From Eledone cirrhosa (Eukaryota), in contig OZ024750.1 in assembly GCA_964016885.1 (NCBI GenBank), forward strand, positions 33,294,001 through 33,358,000: DNA of 64,000 nt, written 5' to 3'. The position numbers and the translations under genes were made by a program. The notes under the pieces are model-generated. The model searched no databases and was not told the DNA's origin. It saw nothing but the letters and a program-made list of their open reading frames with translations. This document shows, piece after piece, positions 1,799 to 26,287 of this stretch. Positions within the stretch are counted from its first letter, which is position 1, and the number at the start of each line of letters is the position of its first letter.

Positions 1799-1875
1799 CT
1801 GTGTGTGTGTGTGTATATGTATATATATATATATTTATTATTATTATTATGTAATAAACAACATAAGGCAATTAT

Positions 1876-1933
1876 TCCATTTACCAGTGGTTTCTTAAAA
1901 GCAAAAGGTTTTGCTTTCAATCCTCAGAATGAA
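1876..1933 (-). ncRNA. Type I hammerhead ribozyme
   Basis: UUCAUU-CUGAGGA-[UUGAAAGCAAAA cc UUUUGCUUUUAA]-GAAA-CCACUGG-UA-AAUGGA: 6-bp stem I, ~12-bp stem II, GUA site. Confidence 0.85.
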
Positions 1934-2274
1934 AAAATCCTGGTTTGTTTATTGAATTTGGATTTTAAAAACAAAAATACAATCTATATGAAAGTGAGGC
2001 TGGAGAAGGAAGAAGGAAAGGAAAAATAAAATAAAACTACACATGCAAACACACACACAAAAAAAACCAGAAGCATACTTACACACACATACATATATAC
2101 ATATATATATGTACGCATACATATATACATATACACATATATATAAAACGTACACTCACATACACATACACATATATACACACATATATACACATACATA
2201 CATTAATACATATACACACACACACATACACACACACACACACACGCATACACACACACACATATATATATATG

Positions 2275-2316
<42 letters not shown>

Positions 2317-2735
2317 CACACATACACATACACACACATACACATGTGTGTACAAGCATACACATACACAAACATAGCCATACACGCACACATATATATA
2401 CACATACATACATTCACACAAACATACAAAACGTACATACATACACATACATGAATGCACTCCTCTACATATTCACACACGCAAATAAATATAAGAAAAA
2501 AATATATATATATATTAAAAATTTTTTGACACCGATACAAGACCCAGCTAACAGGACAGACACGCGTGGTAAGTAATACACACAAAAGCACGTATACATA
2601 CGTACGAAATAGTAAACACATACACACACTCTCACACATAAATATACATAAACAAATACAAAAACACATACATACACATACATACACAAACACGCACACG
2701 TATATAATATAAACACACACACATGTATATGTAAT

Positions 2736-2767
<32 letters not shown>

Positions 2768-2840
2768 ACCACACACACACATATACATAAAAATAAATAC
2801 ACACACACATATACATACATACATATATACACATATATAT

Positions 2841-3616
2841 ATAGAAGGGTAAAAATCGACAATGTCAAATTGGGTAAATCTACACTTATTTTTACCTTGT
2901 ATATTATTGAACCAAGAAATAACAGAGGAAGTATTTAGCCACTGTGAAAGGTCAGTGTTAGTTCTAATTTGGAGAATTATTTTTCTTAAGATTTTCTTAC
3001 TAGCAAGGCCAACCTCGGATTTAGCCGGGTTAATCAGTCTACAACTAGGTCGATTAGTAAAGTCCAATTTATGGTCTTTAAGGGTAATATATTCTTTACG
3101 CTTAGCTAAGCTTTCAATCCGGTTATCTATTTGTAAAGAACTAGCTAGTTCTTTAGCTTCTTTATTGATAGTATTGTAGCTATTATTATTAGTTAATTGA
3201 TATTTATTGGTAATACTATTAGTTAAAAGTTGGTTATACAAATTACTATTAACTTCAAAGAGGTTTTTAGTTTTATCAGAAAGAACGAAAGTGTTTGTAG
3301 AATTTCTAAAATTAGAAATATCGTTAGAAAGTTTAGTTTGAAAGTTATTATTGTACTTACGAAATTTGATATCACTAATTAGATTAACGAGGTCTAATTC
3401 GAAGTTGGCCATGTCTTTAATTCTAGGTGGATATTTACGGGATTTAATGTCAAAACAATCTTTAGTATCAGCGCTGAATAGTCCACCGTAAACCATTGCC
3501 TTCCATCTCATTCTTTTAACGACTTGTTCGATTTTATCTATGAGGATTTTGGTGTAAGTAGTGTTGGAAGGAGTGGGTATATTTTTGATAGAATAATCCA
3601 AATCATAAAGGTCCAT
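2841..3616 (-). pseudogene. N-terminal part of PLE reverse transcriptase ORF, truncated at RT motif A
   Basis: YSIKNIPTP, KRMRWKA, SDKTKN, ITLKDHK..CRLINPAKSEVG, FDIVDFYPSI, then runs into microsatellite. Confidence 0.85.
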
Positions 3617-4139
3617 GGTGTATGTTGGTTAAATTCCTGAAAACTGTAGAGTGCTCAACTAATCGGGCTGGAAATATATATGTGTGTGTGTGTGTGTGTG
3701 TGTATTCTTTCTTATTAGTAGTTTTCGTTTCTTTTGAAAAAGCAGAGATGAAAGGTTTATTTTCTCGTTAACAATTACAAGACGCCATATTAATATTTCC
3801 CTTAATATATATTCAATACCCACTGACCAATATATAAGGAAGCATTAAATCAAATTGTCATTCGTTTCAACAGTAACATGTATTCCTATAATATTTATTC
3901 ATTTAATATTCGCTCACAACTTGTTTCTTCATTGTGGAACGAACTGTTTATATAGATATCGGTAATATAACGCATAAAGGGTAAAGACCCGCTTTGGTTA
4001 CGAATGGCCATGGAATTTGCACCTAGAAAGTTCCCCTCTCCACAGCAGCGATGTTGTCCAAGAGGAAGACAATGGCCGATACAGCTTGGCACTAGTAAGC
4101 CATGCGCCTTTACGATATAAAGCATATGTATGTATAATT

Positions 4140-5000: not shown

Positions 5001-5097
<97 letters not shown>

Positions 5098-5219
5098 CAT
5101 AGATCTATATGATATACATACCAACACAAACATATATATCCTAGAAACGATCGTAAAATGATGAATTTTTTAATATAAGGAACTGTTTCTTTGTTTTTAT
5201 TCCTTATTTTTATTAATTT

Positions 5220-5278
<59 letters not shown>

Positions 5279-6485: not shown

Positions 6486-7005
6486 GCCCCTTTACGGTCA
6501 GAGTTCAAATCCCGTCGAGGTTAACTTTACCTTTCATCCTTACGGGGTCGATAAAATAAAGTACCAGTAATGCACTGGTTAATTGCTGGCCTTGTGCCAA
6601 AAGTAGAAACAATTATTATACTATAAGAAAGGTGGTGGATTGGCAGTATTGGTAGAGCGTCAGACGCCATGTTTTGCAGCATAGGGTTACGCCCTTTAAG
6701 GTTCTGGTTTCAAATCCCGCCGAAGTTAACTTTGCTTTTCATCCTTACGGAGTCGATAAAAGAAAAAGAAAAGAAAATAAAGTACCAGTAATACACTGAG
6801 ATAATTTCTGGTAATTCATGATAGTATCGGTAGAGGGTCGGACGCCATGCTTTGACGCATAGAGTTACGGCCCTTGCCATTCTGAGTTCAAATCTCGCCG
6901 AGGTTAACTTTGCCTTTCATCCTTACGGGGTCGATAAAATAAAGTACCAGTAATGCACTGGGTAATTTTCTGGCCTTGTGCCAAAAGTAGAAACAATTAT
7001 TATAC
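6486..7005 (+). mobile_element. Three tandem copies of SINE family A
   Basis: Repeated GAGTTCAAATCCCGCCGAGGTTAACTTTGCCTTTCATCCTTACGGGGTCGATAAAATAAAGTACCAG..GGCCTTGTGCCAAAAGTAGAAACAATTATT. Confidence 0.9.
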
Positions 7006-12867: not shown

Positions 12868-13296
12868 CAGGGTGTCCAAAATCAAATGTATATACAACAC
12901 AATATTTAAAAAATGCATTAATATAAATTCTGTTTTATATGCATTATTCAAATTACGTAAAGGGCAGTGGATTGGCAGTATCGGTAGAGGGTTGGACGCC
13001 ATGCTTTCTAACATAGTTACGGCCCTTTACAGTCTCAGTTCAAATCCCACCTGAGTTAACTTTGCCTTTCATCCATATGGGGTCGATAAAATAAAGCACC
13101 AGTAATCCACTGGGATAATTTCCGGCCTTGTGCCAAAAGTAGAAACAATTATTTAAATTATGTAAACATTTTGGGGTGTTTACATACAATTGAATTATGT
13201 CTGCAGATTATTTTATTTTTGAAAAAAGCTGTGCATTCTAATAAATATTGCCTGTACAGGTAATCAGAATGTGTATACATGTTTAGGGTCACCCTG
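12868..13296. mobile_element. Tc1/mariner-type MITE interrupted by a SINE A copy (12960-13152)
   Basis: TA|CAGGGTGTCC...GGTCACCCTG|TA terminal inverted repeats with TA target duplication. Confidence 0.75.
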
Positions 13297-14520: not shown

Positions 14521-15097
14521 AAACAATATATGTAATTTACTCTCAATCATAGCAATGCAACCTAACCTACGTGGCCGAGAAATATATACCAGTCTAGTTA
14601 TTGATGTCTTTGCATGGTGACCATATTGTTGTTGTTTATCAGCAAGTCAGCTCGACTTCTGCCAAGTCAGCTGACTCCTGCAAACGGATGATCCAAGTCA
14701 TTTCAACCGTGGCTATCCCGTTTGTTTCTATATTAAGAAAAATGAAATTAATATTTCTTTAACATCTTCTCAACAACGGTACATCAAGTTTTGAAATAAC
14801 GTTTGTTCATTAACTTCATTGTTTGAAAGTGACAGTAAATAACATTAATATATACAATACCGCGTGTCTTTTAAAAACACAGGGTTGCGAGTGGGGAGGG
14901 CTACAGTAGGTCAAGTGATGACATGGAAGCTTGATGGGTTCACATGCAGGCTTCATGAATTCAACTTCACGTGTATTTGTGCTGCAGAATCTTCACAACG
15001 TGTACTTACAAATAGCTTCAAAATCTAACGGCTACTTGAGTAATTATCAAGTATTCTATTGATTCAGTTATCTCTGCGCTCTTAAATATATATATAA

Positions 15098-15324
15098 GTG
15101 AATGAATTCTTTGCATTCGTGAGTTTTATATCGAATAATAATAATATTCGATTCGTTTGTAAGCAAACAGCTTCATTACGTTGTGTTTTAGATGACTATC
15201 TCTGGAACAAAATATTGGAGATGGGCATCGAAAACACTCAGCGTAATGAGGCTGTTTGCTTGCAAACGATTCGAATATTATTACTATTCGATATAAAACT
15301 CACGAATGCAAAGAATTAATTTAT
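15098..15324. repeat. ~110-bp-arm foldback inverted repeat
   Basis: AATTCTTTGCATTCGTGAGTTTTATATCGAAT... pairs with ...ATTCGATATAAAACTCACGAATGCAAAGAATT. Confidence 0.9.
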
Positions 15325-17195
15325 GAATATTTTATATTTCTTAAGTACTAAACATGTTTCTGCTTAATTGATGATTGCATTATTAAATTATAGAATGTTA
15401 ACTATCTATAGTCTTCCAAACATTATTGTAAATGTGGAAATTATTATTTACTGTAAGAAACTCGGCACCGCTTTTATAACTATTCCAGACAATTCTATAA
15501 TTTTGTGAAAATTCCAATTGTATAAGACTTAATGTAATTCAGTTGTAGAAATGCCATTATATCATCAATAAAATAATTTCAAGTATCTTCTGCATTCGGT
15601 GGTTAATGTTTCGGCAGTTGTATTGCAAGTGCGTGTGTTCCAACAGATAATTGATTAACAGATATAACATGCTTTAGATTGAATATAAATATCAAATTGT
15701 GTTAGATTCTGTCAACCTGGGAAACTTTAAGTAATATTTTATGTAACCATTCGTCATCATTCTATTTTTTTTTTAATTTGTTATCTTCCTTTTAAAATGC
15801 TTTCCGTTTCTCATTCCTTTTGATGTCCAAATGAATTTCTTTATATAATATTGTAGAATTACCAACTACGTTCGTTTTATCGTAATACATTTACTTGCTG
15901 TCATAGAACTGCAAGATTATTGAGAAAATAGTTATGTTATTTAATATACCGATGGTTGCGATGGTAACATGAGAAACTAAAAAAATGTTACAATATTTAT
16001 TTCAATGGTAATGCAGTTTCTTCAATAAAGATTTACATAGTTCCACGCCTCGGAAATTTGCGTGCAACAATTAAGCACTCGTTAGTAGAATCCAAGGGAT
16101 TTAGTCATCACTCACAGCCATGACAGCAATCGTAATCTTCATTGAAATACTGTGTTTGATTATTAGAAACTCATCAACCTTTATTTTGTTTGCTATTTCA
16201 TTTTCTAATGACAATGTCAGAACCATATCCTTAGAATTAAGTGTCATTTTCTCCTGGTAGAATCTTTTTTTATTTTTACTCTTAAATATTCTTTTGGTGT
16301 CAATATTGTGATACTTGGCTCTTTTTTTGTTTTTACAATAACCTTTAATGCTTTTTTAGTGTTTATTTTTTCCAAATAACACGATAATAAAGCAGTTTGA
16401 TTTATTAGAAAACGTAATCCTACCGAATACTTTCGCATATTAACATAAAATAGAATAGAACCAAACAATGGAACTTGTATTTCTAATATCGTTGTGCAGC
16501 TGCTATTGGCATTTTGGGGGAATATCAGAATTGGAACGCTGTCTCCTGTCAATGGGAAAACTATTAATTTGAAAAGAGTTGAATTTATTATTTCCAGATA
16601 TTTCTGCTTAAAGAGAAAATCCTAGCTGTATAATTTCTATTATAAATTTATGAAACTCCAAAGTAAATATACTATATTATTTACACGATATACAAATAGT
16701 TAGAGTCTATTAATACGGTAACTGAGAATCTGTGTGTGCTACACTATGTATCTGTGGCTTCGATCCTCATAATATTGTTTATTGGCGCCAGGAGGGCACA
16801 GTAGATTGACATAAACAGGTTCTACCATCATTCAAATATGACCAGGCTTTGTGTTTATATTAACATTGTAACTGATTCCGCCATTTGATAACAGCGATAC
16901 AACAAATGCAATGTGAGTAGAAGAAGCGTAGAAACGCTCCAGAGTGATAAGGCCTGACTACATTTCATAATTTAACAAATAACAATAGGATATATCAGTG
17001 AAATCAAATTAGTATATAGTAATAGATACTTTATGTGGTTCCGAATCTCTTAGAATCTTGGTATTAATTTTTGAAAAGTTAATAGCTTTCTGTATATATA
17101 TTACTTCGTGTATAAGAAATATAATAGCAGCTAGTATATTGTGATATATTGAGATATATGCCATATAAGGTTTCAGTATTTTACTTGAACGTAAG

Positions 17196-17272
<77 letters not shown>

Positions 17273-17754
17273 ATACATACATAACATGAGAGGCATAATC
17301 CTCTTCTTTTCAGTAATACGTTAATAACAATTTATCATTGGTACAGAGAAGCGATTGTTTCATTCTTTGCAACATCCTGCGCAGCTGAATATAATAAATG
17401 CAGGAATATATAACGTCACGATTTGGGATTGTGATAGCACACATAGATATTATTGAGACAACAGCAATGGACATATGGCAATAGCTAGAGCTCCATATAT
17501 ACCACACTATTTTCTAAAATGCTATTTCATGCATGTATAATTTTGCAATATAGATTTCTACAATTTCCAAAAAGCATTCGAAAATGAATAACAAGCAAAT
17601 AAAACCGAAAGCAAGTAACAAGATGGAAGACATTGGGAATATATATTTTTCCCTTTTCAATATATATTTATGTCCTGTGATACGGCTTAGTTTTCAATTT
17701 TTTGGATCTTAGATCCTGGATTTTACCTCGGATCTATCCGATCTGCATGATTAA

Positions 17755-18032
17755 TAATCGTAACAACACATTGAGCTTCCTATCATCTTGTCTAGTGAAA
17801 ACTAAGTAGATATCTCCATTTTATAAAGCTTTATATCTATACCTATATCTATATCTATATATATATATATATATAAATGCATATGTATATACATGTATAT
17901 ATATGTATATATACATACATATATCAATATCTCTCTCTCTATATATATATATACAAAGATTTATAAATGGAGATATCCACCTACTTTTCACTAGAAAGGA
18001 TGATTGGAGACTCAATGGGTTGTTACGATTAT
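17755..18032. repeat. Imperfect inverted repeat with a (TA)-rich spacer
   Basis: ATAATCGTAACAACACATTGAG..GATATCTCCATTTTATAAA pairs with TTTATAAATGGAGATATC..CTCAATGGGTTGTTACGATTAT. Confidence 0.8.
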
Positions 18033-18732: not shown

Positions 18733-18777
<45 letters not shown>

Positions 18778-18821
18778 TGAAAAAGAACAAAGGAACTATT
18801 ATAACATTATAACAAGTTTAT

Positions 18822-18868
18822 TGCCGACAGCCGTTTCGTCCGACCATATGGTGGGACTTTTCAAGGCA
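18822..18868 (-). ncRNA. Type I hammerhead, U3-A8 variant (inverted copy)
   Basis: Exact reverse complement of 19231-19277. Confidence 0.8.
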
Positions 18869-19230
18869 TATAACATGTGATTGTAAGATCATTATTTACA
18901 TCAACGTATCACTCAAGACTAGCGGTTTGAAATTGTGGTATACATCAGCAGCTTCGCTTGTATAGTTGGGGTCTATATTCTAAGGGGGCTCTTTTATATT
19001 AGTTGTCGGGGTCAGGGATTGAAGGTTAGAAATTAGATAATAATTAGTAAATTATATATTATCTAATTTCTAACCTTCAATCCCTGACCCCAACAACTAA
19101 TATAAAAGAGCCCCCTTAGAATATAGACCCCAACTATACAAGCGAAGCTGCTGATGTATACCACAATTTCAAACTGCTAGTCTTGAGTGATACGTTGATG
19201 TAAATAATGATCTTACAATCACATGTTATA

Positions 19231-19277
19231 TGCCTTGAAAAGTCCCACCATATGGTCGGACGAAACGGCTGTCGGCA
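19231..19277 (+). ncRNA. Type I hammerhead, U3-A8 variant
   Basis: UGCC-UUGAAAA-GUCC c ACCA ua UGGU c GGAC-GAAA-CGGCUG-UC-GGCA: all stems pair, GUC site. Confidence 0.8.
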
Positions 19278-19453
19278 ATAAACTTGTTATAATGTCATAA
19301 TAGTTCCTTTGTTCTTTTTCACTAATATTTCTGCTCTGCTTACACGCATAGAGCTTAACTAGCTACCGTCACAAATTTGGTAGGTTAGACGTGATCATCG
19401 CGATTCACATACGACCTACCATACATCTTGCTTATATATATATATATATATAC

Positions 19454-19793: not shown

Positions 19794-20031
19794 AGTAAAA
19801 GAGTGAAAAATAGTGTGGTCGGCTGGACAATAGAGTTTATTTAATGTATCAACAATTGTTTCATTAGTCCGGTGTGTCTAAGAATCGCTGATCGTTAGAA
19901 TTCATGTCATTCGATTTTAATTACAGTCGATACCCGATCAAATCATCAGAATACATGATAGAGTGCACTAGTATTTATAGATACATTGGACAATAACATA
20001 AATGAAAACAATAATAATAATAACATTAATG

Positions 20032-20067
<36 letters not shown>

Positions 20068-20139
20068 GTAGTGGTAGTAGTGGTAGTAGTAATAGTTGCA
20101 GTGATGAGGGGATAGAAACGTAAAATAGTAATGACAATA

Positions 20140-20325
20140 ATAATAATTGTTTCTACTTTAGGCACAAGGCCAGCAAATATCCAGTACATTACTGGTACTT
20201 TATTTTATCGACCCCGTAAGGACGAAAGGCAAAGTTAACCTCGGCGGGATTTGAACTCAGACTGTAAAAGGGACGTAACTATGCTAGAAAGCATGGCGTC
20301 CAACCCTCTACCGATACTGCCAATT
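20140..20325 (-). mobile_element. SINE family A
   Basis: Reverse complement of the family A consensus, in an (AAT)n context. Confidence 0.9.
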
Positions 20326-20539
20326 CAATAATAATAATAACATGGAGAAAGTGAGGGCAGTGGTATAAAGAGATGATATGATAAGGGAGATACTTGGCAG
20401 TGTAATAAAATGAGATGAGGCGATAGTGGAGACATTCAAATACAGTGGGGTGAGATGGGTTAAATAGATGAAGCGGCGAAATATAAAATAAAAAGATAAA
20501 GATAACATACGGGTGATTAAGTTTGGGGTATTTTGAAAA

Positions 20540-20730
20540 GTGTGGATTGGCAGTATCGGTAGAGGGTCGGACGCCATGCTTTGATGTATAGAGTTACGGC
20601 CCTTGCTATTCTGAGTTCAAATCCCGCCTAGGTTAACTTTGCCTTTCATCCTTACGGAGTTGATAAAATAAAGTACAAGTAATCAACTGGGTAATTGCTG
20701 GCCTTGTGCCAAAAGTAGAAACAATTATCT
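20540..20730 (+). mobile_element. SINE family A
   Basis: Matches the family A consensus. Confidence 0.9.
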
Positions 20731-20959
20731 TAATGGAGGTGAAGATTGGTGGTAGTGGTGTGTATGAGAGGGCGTGTCTATACAAAAGCTGAGGGAACGT
20801 CGATCGTTCTAATGTCAGTTGAGTCAATGTAGGTTGGTAGATGTATGAAGTTAGCGCCTATATGTGGCTGACAGTCGTAGTAAGGATGTGTAAAATTGAT
20901 TTGTTGGCGCCAGTATTGCAGACATTTTAAATCCGGGGGTTTTGTATGGATAGTGAGAT

Positions 20960-21125
20960 TGCCGGATCGAATCATGCTCGTCTCGGTTTGTAGTTAGAAC
21001 ATTTAGTGGCGGCTTTGTGCCTACAGAAGATTGTCCGCTCGATTTTGCTGTTAAGCAGCATTTTGGAGTAGTTCCATATTGCAGAGTCCACGATGGCTGA
21101 ATACAATAAATGTAATCTGAGTTTA
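20960..21125 (-). pseudogene. Decayed Naiad-like GIY-YIG C-terminus; its 3' UTR probably extends to ~20330
   Basis: GLCNMELL then, after a frameshift, MLLNSKIERTIFCRHKAATKCSNYKP. Aligns with CKLCNLEIY..LLNNRIERTLFCRHRTKTLFSHYKP at 62.9 kb. Confidence 0.75.
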
Positions 21126-21134
21126 TCGAATATT

Positions 21135-21320
21135 AATAATAATTGTTTCTACTTTAAGCACAAGGCCAGCAATTACCAGTGCATTACTGGTACTTTTATT
21201 TTATCGACCCCGTAAGGATGAAAGGCAAAGTCAACCTCGGCGGGATTTGAACTCAGATCGTAAAGGGACGTAACTATGCTGGAAAGCATGGCGTCCGACC
21301 CTCTACCGATACTGCCAATA
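21135..21320 (-). mobile_element. SINE family A
   Basis: Reverse complement of the consensus. Confidence 0.9.
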
Positions 21321-21379
21321 CAAAGGCTTTCCTGGTGATTTCCTTCGAACGAAACAGTTCTACTCCTGTAGAAACCATT

Positions 21380-25598: not shown

Positions 25599-25695
25599 AT
25601 ACCTTCCTGCCAGATTGTTGAACGTATATACTTACCTTATGCATATTAACGGCTGAGTAGCCCAATTTGCATATCGCGTGGGTTATATATATATG

Positions 25696-25779
<84 letters not shown>

Positions 25780-25781
<2 letters not shown>

Positions 25782-25913
25782 TATTTCTGAAGACAGCATA
25801 TATATGTGTAGGTATGTATATTCCCTCTGATAGTTTGTTAAATGTTTACATAGATCTATAGGATATATATACCAACACACACATATATATCCTAGAAACG
25901 ATCGTAAAATGAT
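25780..25913 (+). ncRNA. Type I hammerhead with a 101-nt stem II; truncated sibling at 5098-5222
   Basis: AUUAUUU-CUGAAGA-[25794..25894]-GAAA-CGAUCG-UA-AAAUGAU: 7-bp stem I. Stem II contains AUAUAUAUGUGU/ACACAUAUAUAU and GGUAUGUAUAU/AUAUAUAUACC helices. Confidence 0.75.
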
Positions 25914-26287
25914 GAATTTTTTAATATAAGGAACTGTTTCTTTGTTTTTATTCATTATTTTTATTAATTTTATTAATTTATCTTGACTCTTTTTTTCCTG
26001 TGATTTTTATCGAAAAAAATGTTGAATACATCTTCTCTTTTTATGATATTTGGATTACATTGAGTTCTTCATACGGATTGGACAATACCGTATATTTTGG
26101 TAGATTTATCTACATATATATATATAAATATATATATATATAATAAGTTGACAGAACTAGCATAGGCATAACTACTCGGACCGGTTGTATCTCAGCGTAC
26201 TCAATAGGTAGTGTAAAATAAACTACCAGAATATACACATAGTTATTCGCTTCAATACAACACACGTAAACGGGTACCTTCAATTGC

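Follow-up and report, generated by a model that had tools for sequence, protein, structure and literature searches.

A probable Hydra-clade Penelope-like element fragment carrying a predicted hammerhead with a 101-nt stem II in Eledone cirrhosa

The window, a 64-kb stretch of Eledone cirrhosa contig OZ024750.1 that was analysed as a whole, contains a non-coding element at positions 25780 to 26113 that is flanked on both sides by TA repeat arrays (Table 1). An initial annotation had placed a hammerhead with a 101-nt stem II here and had set the element between (TA)n arrays; stem I, CTGAAGA, a 101-nt spacer, GAAAC, stem III, GTA and both arrays are all in place. It had also called the element mostly a hammerhead, which is too strong, because the hammerhead covers 134 of the 334 nt. 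The second, truncated copy that it had reported was found at about 5095-5221; this copy differs by 4 substitutions, is without a 9-nt duplication present in copy 1, has no CUGAAGA owing to its truncation and stops about 4 nt ahead of hairpin 1. Both window copies are inserted in (TA)n and both are single, and no head-to-tail hammerhead units were found in the 64-kb window. An ORF-like frame on the minus strand (25683-26006) extends into (TA)n and was treated as chance. Across the same upstream array, and pointing away from the 25780 copy, sits a second hammerhead-like motif of unrelated sequence (25592, minus strand), with CTGACGA, a 14-nt spacer and a U.U base.

Table 1. Features of the 25780-26113 element, its shorter copy and other hammerheads in the window
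Feature	Position	Strand	Evidence
(TA)n array, upstream, likely insertion target	25684..25778	none	repeat annotation
Stem I, 5' strand; 5' end of truncated copy	25780..25786	+	motif search, read alignments
Catalytic core CUGAAGA	25787..25793	+	motif search, reads
Stem II, 101 nt	25794..25894	+	folding, read variants
GAAAC, palindromic stem III and cleavage triplet GUA; predicted cut after 25906	25895..25906	+	
Stem I, 3' strand	25907..25913	+	read variants
T-rich linker; proximal end site near 25981	25914..25985	+	copy 2, reads
Hydra-type bulged hairpin 1 (ACTC ... TT GAGT TCT), 83 nt	25986..26068	+	
45-nt segment reaching distal end site (26113)	26069..26113	+	hairpin gap in relatives
(AT)n array, downstream	26114..26142	none	repeat annotation
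Copy 2, shorter, in (TA)n: stem II apex to proximal end site	5095..5221	+	
Hammerhead, 91-nt spacer	60873; core again 63911, cut by window end	minus	
Hammerhead, 80-nt spacer	19949		
Hammerhead, 26-nt spacer	1927		

The motif has the make-up of a type I hammerhead (CUGANGA ... GAAA ... NUH, with three stems), and its core is kept in reads. Stem I comprises 7 bp, including one G-U; GAAAC follows CTGAAGA after exactly 101 nt, and GTA lies at 25904-25906. In stem III, a C-G pair closes a GATC loop within ACGATCGT (25898-25905), a perfect palindrome with a predicted duplex energy of -10.0 kcal/mol. The canonical G-C pair 10.1-11.1 that closes stem II is missing. Instead, the base of stem II consists of a C.A mismatch (25794/25894), 2 bp and a C.C mismatch (25797/25891), two irregularities that the initial annotation had omitted. 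Beyond them follow a 12-bp AT/GT helix (25798-25809/25879-25890), an internal loop, a second 12-bp helix (25811-25822/25862-25873) and a variable apex (25823-25861). The 101-nt spacer folds at -28.1 kcal/mol, below 500 of 500 dinucleotide shuffles. The earlier description of the helices as microsatellite-like is borne out by their purine-pyrimidine alternation, which is 0.9-1.0 in the two long helices versus 0.51 in the apical part; however, within stem II Tandem Repeats Finder reports no array, and the helices are therefore repeat-like rather than true microsatellites.

Rfam returned no match at gathering score, and none of 22 weak matches up to E 10 was a hammerhead. For the monomer, the predicted optimum in two short contexts is an alternative fold that ties up GAAAC; the hammerhead fold is 3.1-8.4 kcal/mol less stable there, and 13.9 kcal/mol less stable when long flanks are included. 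The double-hammerhead dimer is predicted at -68.4 kcal/mol, compared with -59.8 kcal/mol for two monomers and -68.8 kcal/mol for the cofold optimum, placing the symmetric dimer within 0.4 kcal/mol of that optimum and 8.6 kcal/mol below two monomers. These energies fit the dimer-dependent, weak cutting reported for motifs of Penelope-like elements (PLEs) (PMC4209133; review PMC6765202), and the minimal type I hammerhead is predicted to cut only as a dimer.

PLE hammerheads are described in PMC4209133 as dispersed, single truncated motifs for which dimer activity is predicted. The 25780 motif shares with these metazoan minimal hammerheads (Cervera and de la Pena 2014, PMC4209133) the CUGANGA/GAAA core, a palindromic stem III, an extra base after position 9, the dispersed single truncated occurrence and the predicted dimer activity. 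It differs in having no G10.1-C11.1 pair, which that account gives as highly conserved, and in a helix II of about 26 bp versus 7-8 bp. Within openly accessible work, mostly at title level, no PLE hammerhead is described whose stem II is about 100 nt long or consists of simple repeats, a negative limited by the supplements of bioRxiv 10.64898/2026.07.22.740005, which may list long motifs.

Seven of 16 sequencing runs (X1, X3, X5, X6, X7, X14 and X15) were aligned to the stretch, leaving out X4 and X8-X13, which were of small share. Matches comprised 2407 (X1) and 2616 contigs from one sample, and 5648 (X14) and 5227 RAD reads from two other samples. These thousands of matches show many copies and bear out the proposal of a repeat family. 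We rejected read depth as a measure of copy number, as X14 and X15 are RAD libraries (150-nt reads). Other copies retain CTGAAGA and the stem I complement at the same spacing; a lack of these would have counted against the initial annotation. The X14 core is near invariant: among the variants listed (40 of 45), the only one at or above 3% is G8>C, in 56 reads with 2 read starts. Position H17 is A or U, with GUU in 1550 of 2898 X14 reads, and a common stem I variant, G>A at 25911, turns U-G into U-A. One contig from X6, a run with another organism code, spans 25780-25912 without a gap; none of its 7 differences falls in the core or stem I. An exact 24-nt pattern gave no match in metagenome contigs.

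The initial annotation had the element start at stem I, which holds for the window copy and not for the family. Upstream of 25780, 556 X14 reads carry on with non-(TA)n sequence (consensus agreement 0.69), and one X6 contig carries on with similar letters; the window copy is thus 5'-truncated. The last upstream bases of the longer copies would add about three pairs to stem I. Searching the window for a 19-nt motif of this upstream flank gave 1 match where 0.61 was expected, which amounts to no real one. Fold-back joints at 25780-25784 were seen in 26 of 4013 X14 reads and one X7 contig, and none at the window locus, which suggests that this edge is a recurring 5' end, a feature for which the reading preferred below does not account. 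Near the proximal site, 319 (X14) and 309 (X15) reads have a loose end into (TA)n. In the RAD data, 1092 reads begin about 13 nt before 25879. These starts probably mark a restriction site, and a subfamily without the 5' half was dropped as their source. In X5, a run with another organism code, the hammerhead 3' half is abundant over 25779-25916, the 5' half barely matches and 25893 T>C is nearly fixed, which we read as a related family with a diverged stem II.

To place the element among PLEs, we used the best 77 of at least 531 confirmed Hydra-like loci, with 10 of 28 homologous proteins as queries, and scanned them for hammerheads with spacers of up to about 250 nt. The scan found 69 hammerheads in 56 of the 77 loci, all with a stem II of 10-25 nt as against 101 nt in the 25780 motif, and none in the other 21. 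The published Hydra motifs are similar: counted by eye, stem II measures 12-26 nt across the 26 Hydra entries of File S2 of PMC8557442; a spike-moss motif of about 54 nt in that paper's table carries a remark that it deviates. Among 47 distinct Hydra relatives, about half have stem II flanked by an unpaired base on either side, C.A stands at its base in 2 of 50 Hydra motifs and U.U occurs there in the published Hydra table (PMC8557442). For Hydra, a mismatched stem II base is the normal condition.

Published Hydra families insert into (TA)n, and the marks given for the clade in section 11 of PMC8557442 are an RT with RWK and DKT and, at the C terminus, a GIY-YIG with a CxCX5C linker. Like the Hydra clade (Craig et al. 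2021, PMC8557442), which includes Hydra-1_Obim, the 25780 copy combines insertion into (TA)n with a type I hammerhead, a short palindromic stem III, an unpaired base flanking stem II on both sides and a short T-rich tail before its end. Unlike the clade, it has a 101-nt stem II with a C.C mismatch, an 83-nt hairpin 1 and no linked ORF. It does not belong to the Hydra-1_Obim family, as two of its short motifs had no match in the supplement of PMC8557442. Naiads, reported in that paper as having no canonical hammerheads, were set aside as a source. Searching viral contigs with the Hydra protein profile gave 411 pattern matches, of which none was confirmed.

The sequence downstream of the hammerhead was compared with the same loci. 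A bulged hairpin motif is present in all 17 of 17 upstream pLTRs of Hydra loci, and twice in 14. In these metagenome loci (L001-L077) it is paired, takes the form GCTC ... NNGAGC ACT and lies between the hammerhead and ATG; the hairpins are 20-31 nt long and 33-56 nt apart in 14 of 17. In hairpin 1, an A-U pair replaces the outer G-C pair and the hairpin is enlarged to 83 nt, and read variants strengthen its helix. It starts 79 nt past the cut, versus 33-54 nt in relatives. The pattern occurs once in 25780-26113, in 31 of 20000 shuffles and in 2 of 618 window tiles (the finding included), rates that are optimistic because the criterion was drawn from the compared loci rather than a publication, was written after viewing the sequences and was broadened to ACTC/GAGT so as to take in the finding.

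The stopping points of the two window copies are also those of Hydra insertions. Some metagenome Hydra copies end a few bases ahead of either hairpin, and three loci (L017, L022 and L049) end a few nucleotides before a hairpin by eye. The 25780 copy ends 45 nt past hairpin 1, where relatives carry the second hairpin. Given the hairpin spacing in relatives, we infer that 26069-26113 adjoined a second hairpin absent from this copy. Outside the hammerhead, 25914-26113 resembles the 5' UTR of Hydra-clade PLEs. Two end sites downstream of the hammerhead have also been described for Poseidon PAc, for which internal initiation is reported as shown (PMC11167929). The 25780 element is like PAc in its two tail-defining end sites and AT-rich targets; it is unlike PAc, whose ORF begins within stem II, in having no ORF that overlaps the motif. 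The PLE tail is described there as 30-40 bp, whereas the two ends are about 130 nt apart here.

Together, these comparisons lead us to regard 25780-26113 as probably a 5'-truncated piece of the pseudo-LTR (pLTR)/5' UTR of a Hydra-clade PLE, inserted into (TA)n, a reading supported by an architecture that matches the PLE minimal hammerheads (PMC4209133). The earlier proposal of a solo pLTR would thus be right in substance, with two amendments: the copy is truncated, and it can be assigned a place close to the Hydra clade. A Hydra RT-endonuclease would cut (TA)n and copy RNA from the distal end site; copying would pass hairpin 1 and the hammerhead and halt at the 5' edge of stem I. For copy 2, it would start at the proximal site and halt at the apex of stem II. 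A pair of hammerheads in the parent RNA would join via the palindrome and cut after GUA or GUU, with the long helix likely bracing the weak base of stem II (C.A, 2 bp, C.C). Selection probably acts on pairing within the basal 14 bp, and the extra length of stem II is probably tolerated, not needed. The lone 25780 copy is probably inactive where it lies, since no complete partner is nearby.

Neither a parent ORF nor a tandem unit was seen, which leaves room for a second account: a retrozyme-like, non-autonomous element without an ORF, which would descend from a Hydra pLTR and rely on Hydra enzymes for copying in trans, with the locus holding a truncated monomer. We consider this possible, although we do not favour it. 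Animal retrozymes are reported to derive from PLE pLTRs (10.64898/2026.07.22.740005), and the family resembles the animal non-LTR retrozymes (PMC7229834; bioRxiv 10.64898/2026.07.22.740005) in being non-coding, about 300 nt long and present in many copies, with a type I hammerhead and a proposed PLE ancestry. Its abundance in X1 contigs and X14 reads and its several variant groups fit this account, as does the enlargement of stem II together with hairpin 1, a change that could suit an RNA existing on its own. In addition, no read or contig joins the family to an ORF, at a read length of 150 nt. Against it, the hammerhead is of the minimal PLE type, the pattern of the ends is that of Hydra pLTRs, and the window has two single copies where retrozymes by definition form tandem units (10.64898/2026.07.22.740005; PMC7229834). 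Among the reads, no joint connecting the 3' end with stem I is listed, a weak test because a monomer could exceed the aligned stretch; the only step back listed is 26084 to 25877, in 2 reads.

We then asked whether read variants bear on stem II pairing. Among 26 pairs of the basal and two long helices in X14, variants affect the 5' base in 8 and the 3' base in 9; 6 vary on both sides (2.8 expected, P = 0.008), the counts being unlinked and the copies related. Double variants give a new Watson-Crick pair at 5 of the 26 (P = 0.06), one by transversion, versus 0-3 in registers slid by 1-3. Read counts are roughly alike at 25795/25893 (220/200), at 25798/25890 (143/131) and for the transversion pair 25809/25879 (231/154), and matching double variants stand at both ends of the AT/GT helix. 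Other variants break pairs: 25880 C>A (185 of 1394 reads), most of 25888 T>C (173 reads, against only 46 for the matching partner variant), 25807 T>A and 25815 T>G. Read depth doubles over 25879-25916. Neither base of the C.A mismatch has a listed variant at or above 3% in X14, and variation is heaviest in the apex. RNA editing was dropped as a source of the variants, as A>G was seen at as many places as T>C, 6 each. For the covariation check that had been proposed for stem II, the variants lend modest support to selection on pairing of the basal helix. The C.C mismatch likewise has no listed variant at or above 3%, though its flanking pairs vary together; C.C at this place is absent from the 47 distinct Hydra relatives.

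The initial annotation had further suggested that simple repeats were co-opted as ribozyme structure. This has partial support from the matching double variants at both ends of the AT/GT helix; on the other side, those counts are unlinked, and a second Hydra family in the window has a 91-nt stem II that lacks repeat character. A microsatellite origin of the helix and a need for its length are conjectural. Going further, the family could be a Hydra-derived non-autonomous RNA family in which the inverted AT/GT repeat is a required clamp for the weak stem II base, as one case of a genome-wide lengthening of peripheral helices by which Penelope RNAs escape standard searches. We offer this combined view tentatively and think it unlikely. 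Conversely, an ordinary Hydra hammerhead might have taken an inverted simple-repeat insertion in loop II that pairs by AT/GT self-complementarity and is unselected. The alternating purine-pyrimidine arms, the AT/GT-rich stretches that fill the 3' UTRs of Hydra elements in the window and the P value of the Watson-Crick double-variant test taken alone are compatible with such an origin. We nevertheless judge it improbable in view of the excess of pairs varying on both sides, the Watson-Crick restorations beyond those of slid registers, the concentration of variation in the apex and the near-fixed 25893 T>C in X5, which requires a partner. A chance match of hammerhead words in AT-rich DNA is scarcely credible: Rfam has no match and the window copy is predicted to fold best into something other than the hammerhead, but reads and an independent contig preserve the core, the palindrome, stem I and the spacing, and variants keep stem I and a valid triplet.

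The preferred reading, a truncated Hydra-clade pLTR piece, also agrees with the company that the element keeps. Hydra-type elements in the window have hammerheads of the same build and (TA)n ends. Window ORFs carry the Hydra marks RWK, DKT and CxCX5C and are not linked to the 25780 family; among 4 ORFs Pfam names only a GIY-YIG fragment, and the other three were assigned to Hydra by motifs and alignment. By eye, the start of ORF 2840-3628 resembles Hydra-1_Obim, a likeness that together with the abundance of microsatellites would point to an octopus-like host. The 91-nt stem II is a strong hairpin without simple repeats (alternation 0.58), so that stem II length, rather than microsatellite co-option, is the shared trait; the 80-nt spacer at 19949 folds no better than shuffles. 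Long stem II is a trait of several families in the window, and the simple-repeat content is special to the 25780 family.

Hammerheads in Penelope pLTRs are well known, and the element itself is ordinary; its arm is unusual, at about four times the length found in relatives. Descriptors built for short stems likely miss a 101-nt stem II motif too. As Rfam misses the motif, such genomes may contain more hammerheads than have been counted, and ribozymes may have been overlooked in some PLE families described as having none. One window offers a natural series of stem II lengths (26, 80, 91 and 101 nt) that could be used to ask whether length, the two fixed mismatches or dimer formation sets the cutting rate, a question that bears on what PLE hammerheads do.

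Several other elements were noted in the window. At 60720-64000 lies a Hydra-type PLE with an inverted 643-bp pLTR copy (60784-61426 = 63358-64000, 99.8%), a 5'-truncated RT, a frameshift near 62480-62510, an EN and the 91-nt stem II hammerhead. The Hydra-type PLE at 1830-3690 (minus strand) has an ORF that ends at the RT motif QFDIVDFYPS, followed by about 800 nt of TG/TA-rich sequence and the 26-nt-spacer hammerhead. The 5' end of this PLE is followed after about 6 nt by a bulged hairpin situated immediately upstream of ATG. At 19800-21100 (minus strand), a C-terminal Hydra EN remnant is joined to a 3' UTR that is broken by short repeats and ends in the 80-nt-spacer hammerhead. A GIY-YIG fragment at 28950-29962 has a CX4CXXC linker and a short inverted copy. 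The hammerhead at 29016 (minus strand) has a 49-nt spacer and a G-C closing pair, from which longer stem II may not be limited to Hydra.

Adjoining (TA)n, a 558-bp near-perfect palindrome (18771-19328, 97.5%) contains a hammerhead with a U3-A8 core (TTGAAAA) in each arm, and fold-back palindromes of 250-280 bp lie at 15084-15339, 17754-18032 and 60363-60607. Degenerate (TA)n fills about 4.8 kb at 54211-59024, with a 200-N gap. Finally, a SINE-like repeat of about 190 bp is present in at least 9 copies that are 80-96% alike (6823-7003, 12968-13153, 20138-20328, 20543-20728, 21134-21323, 38473-38635, 42089-42268, 51515-51702 and 53106-53296).
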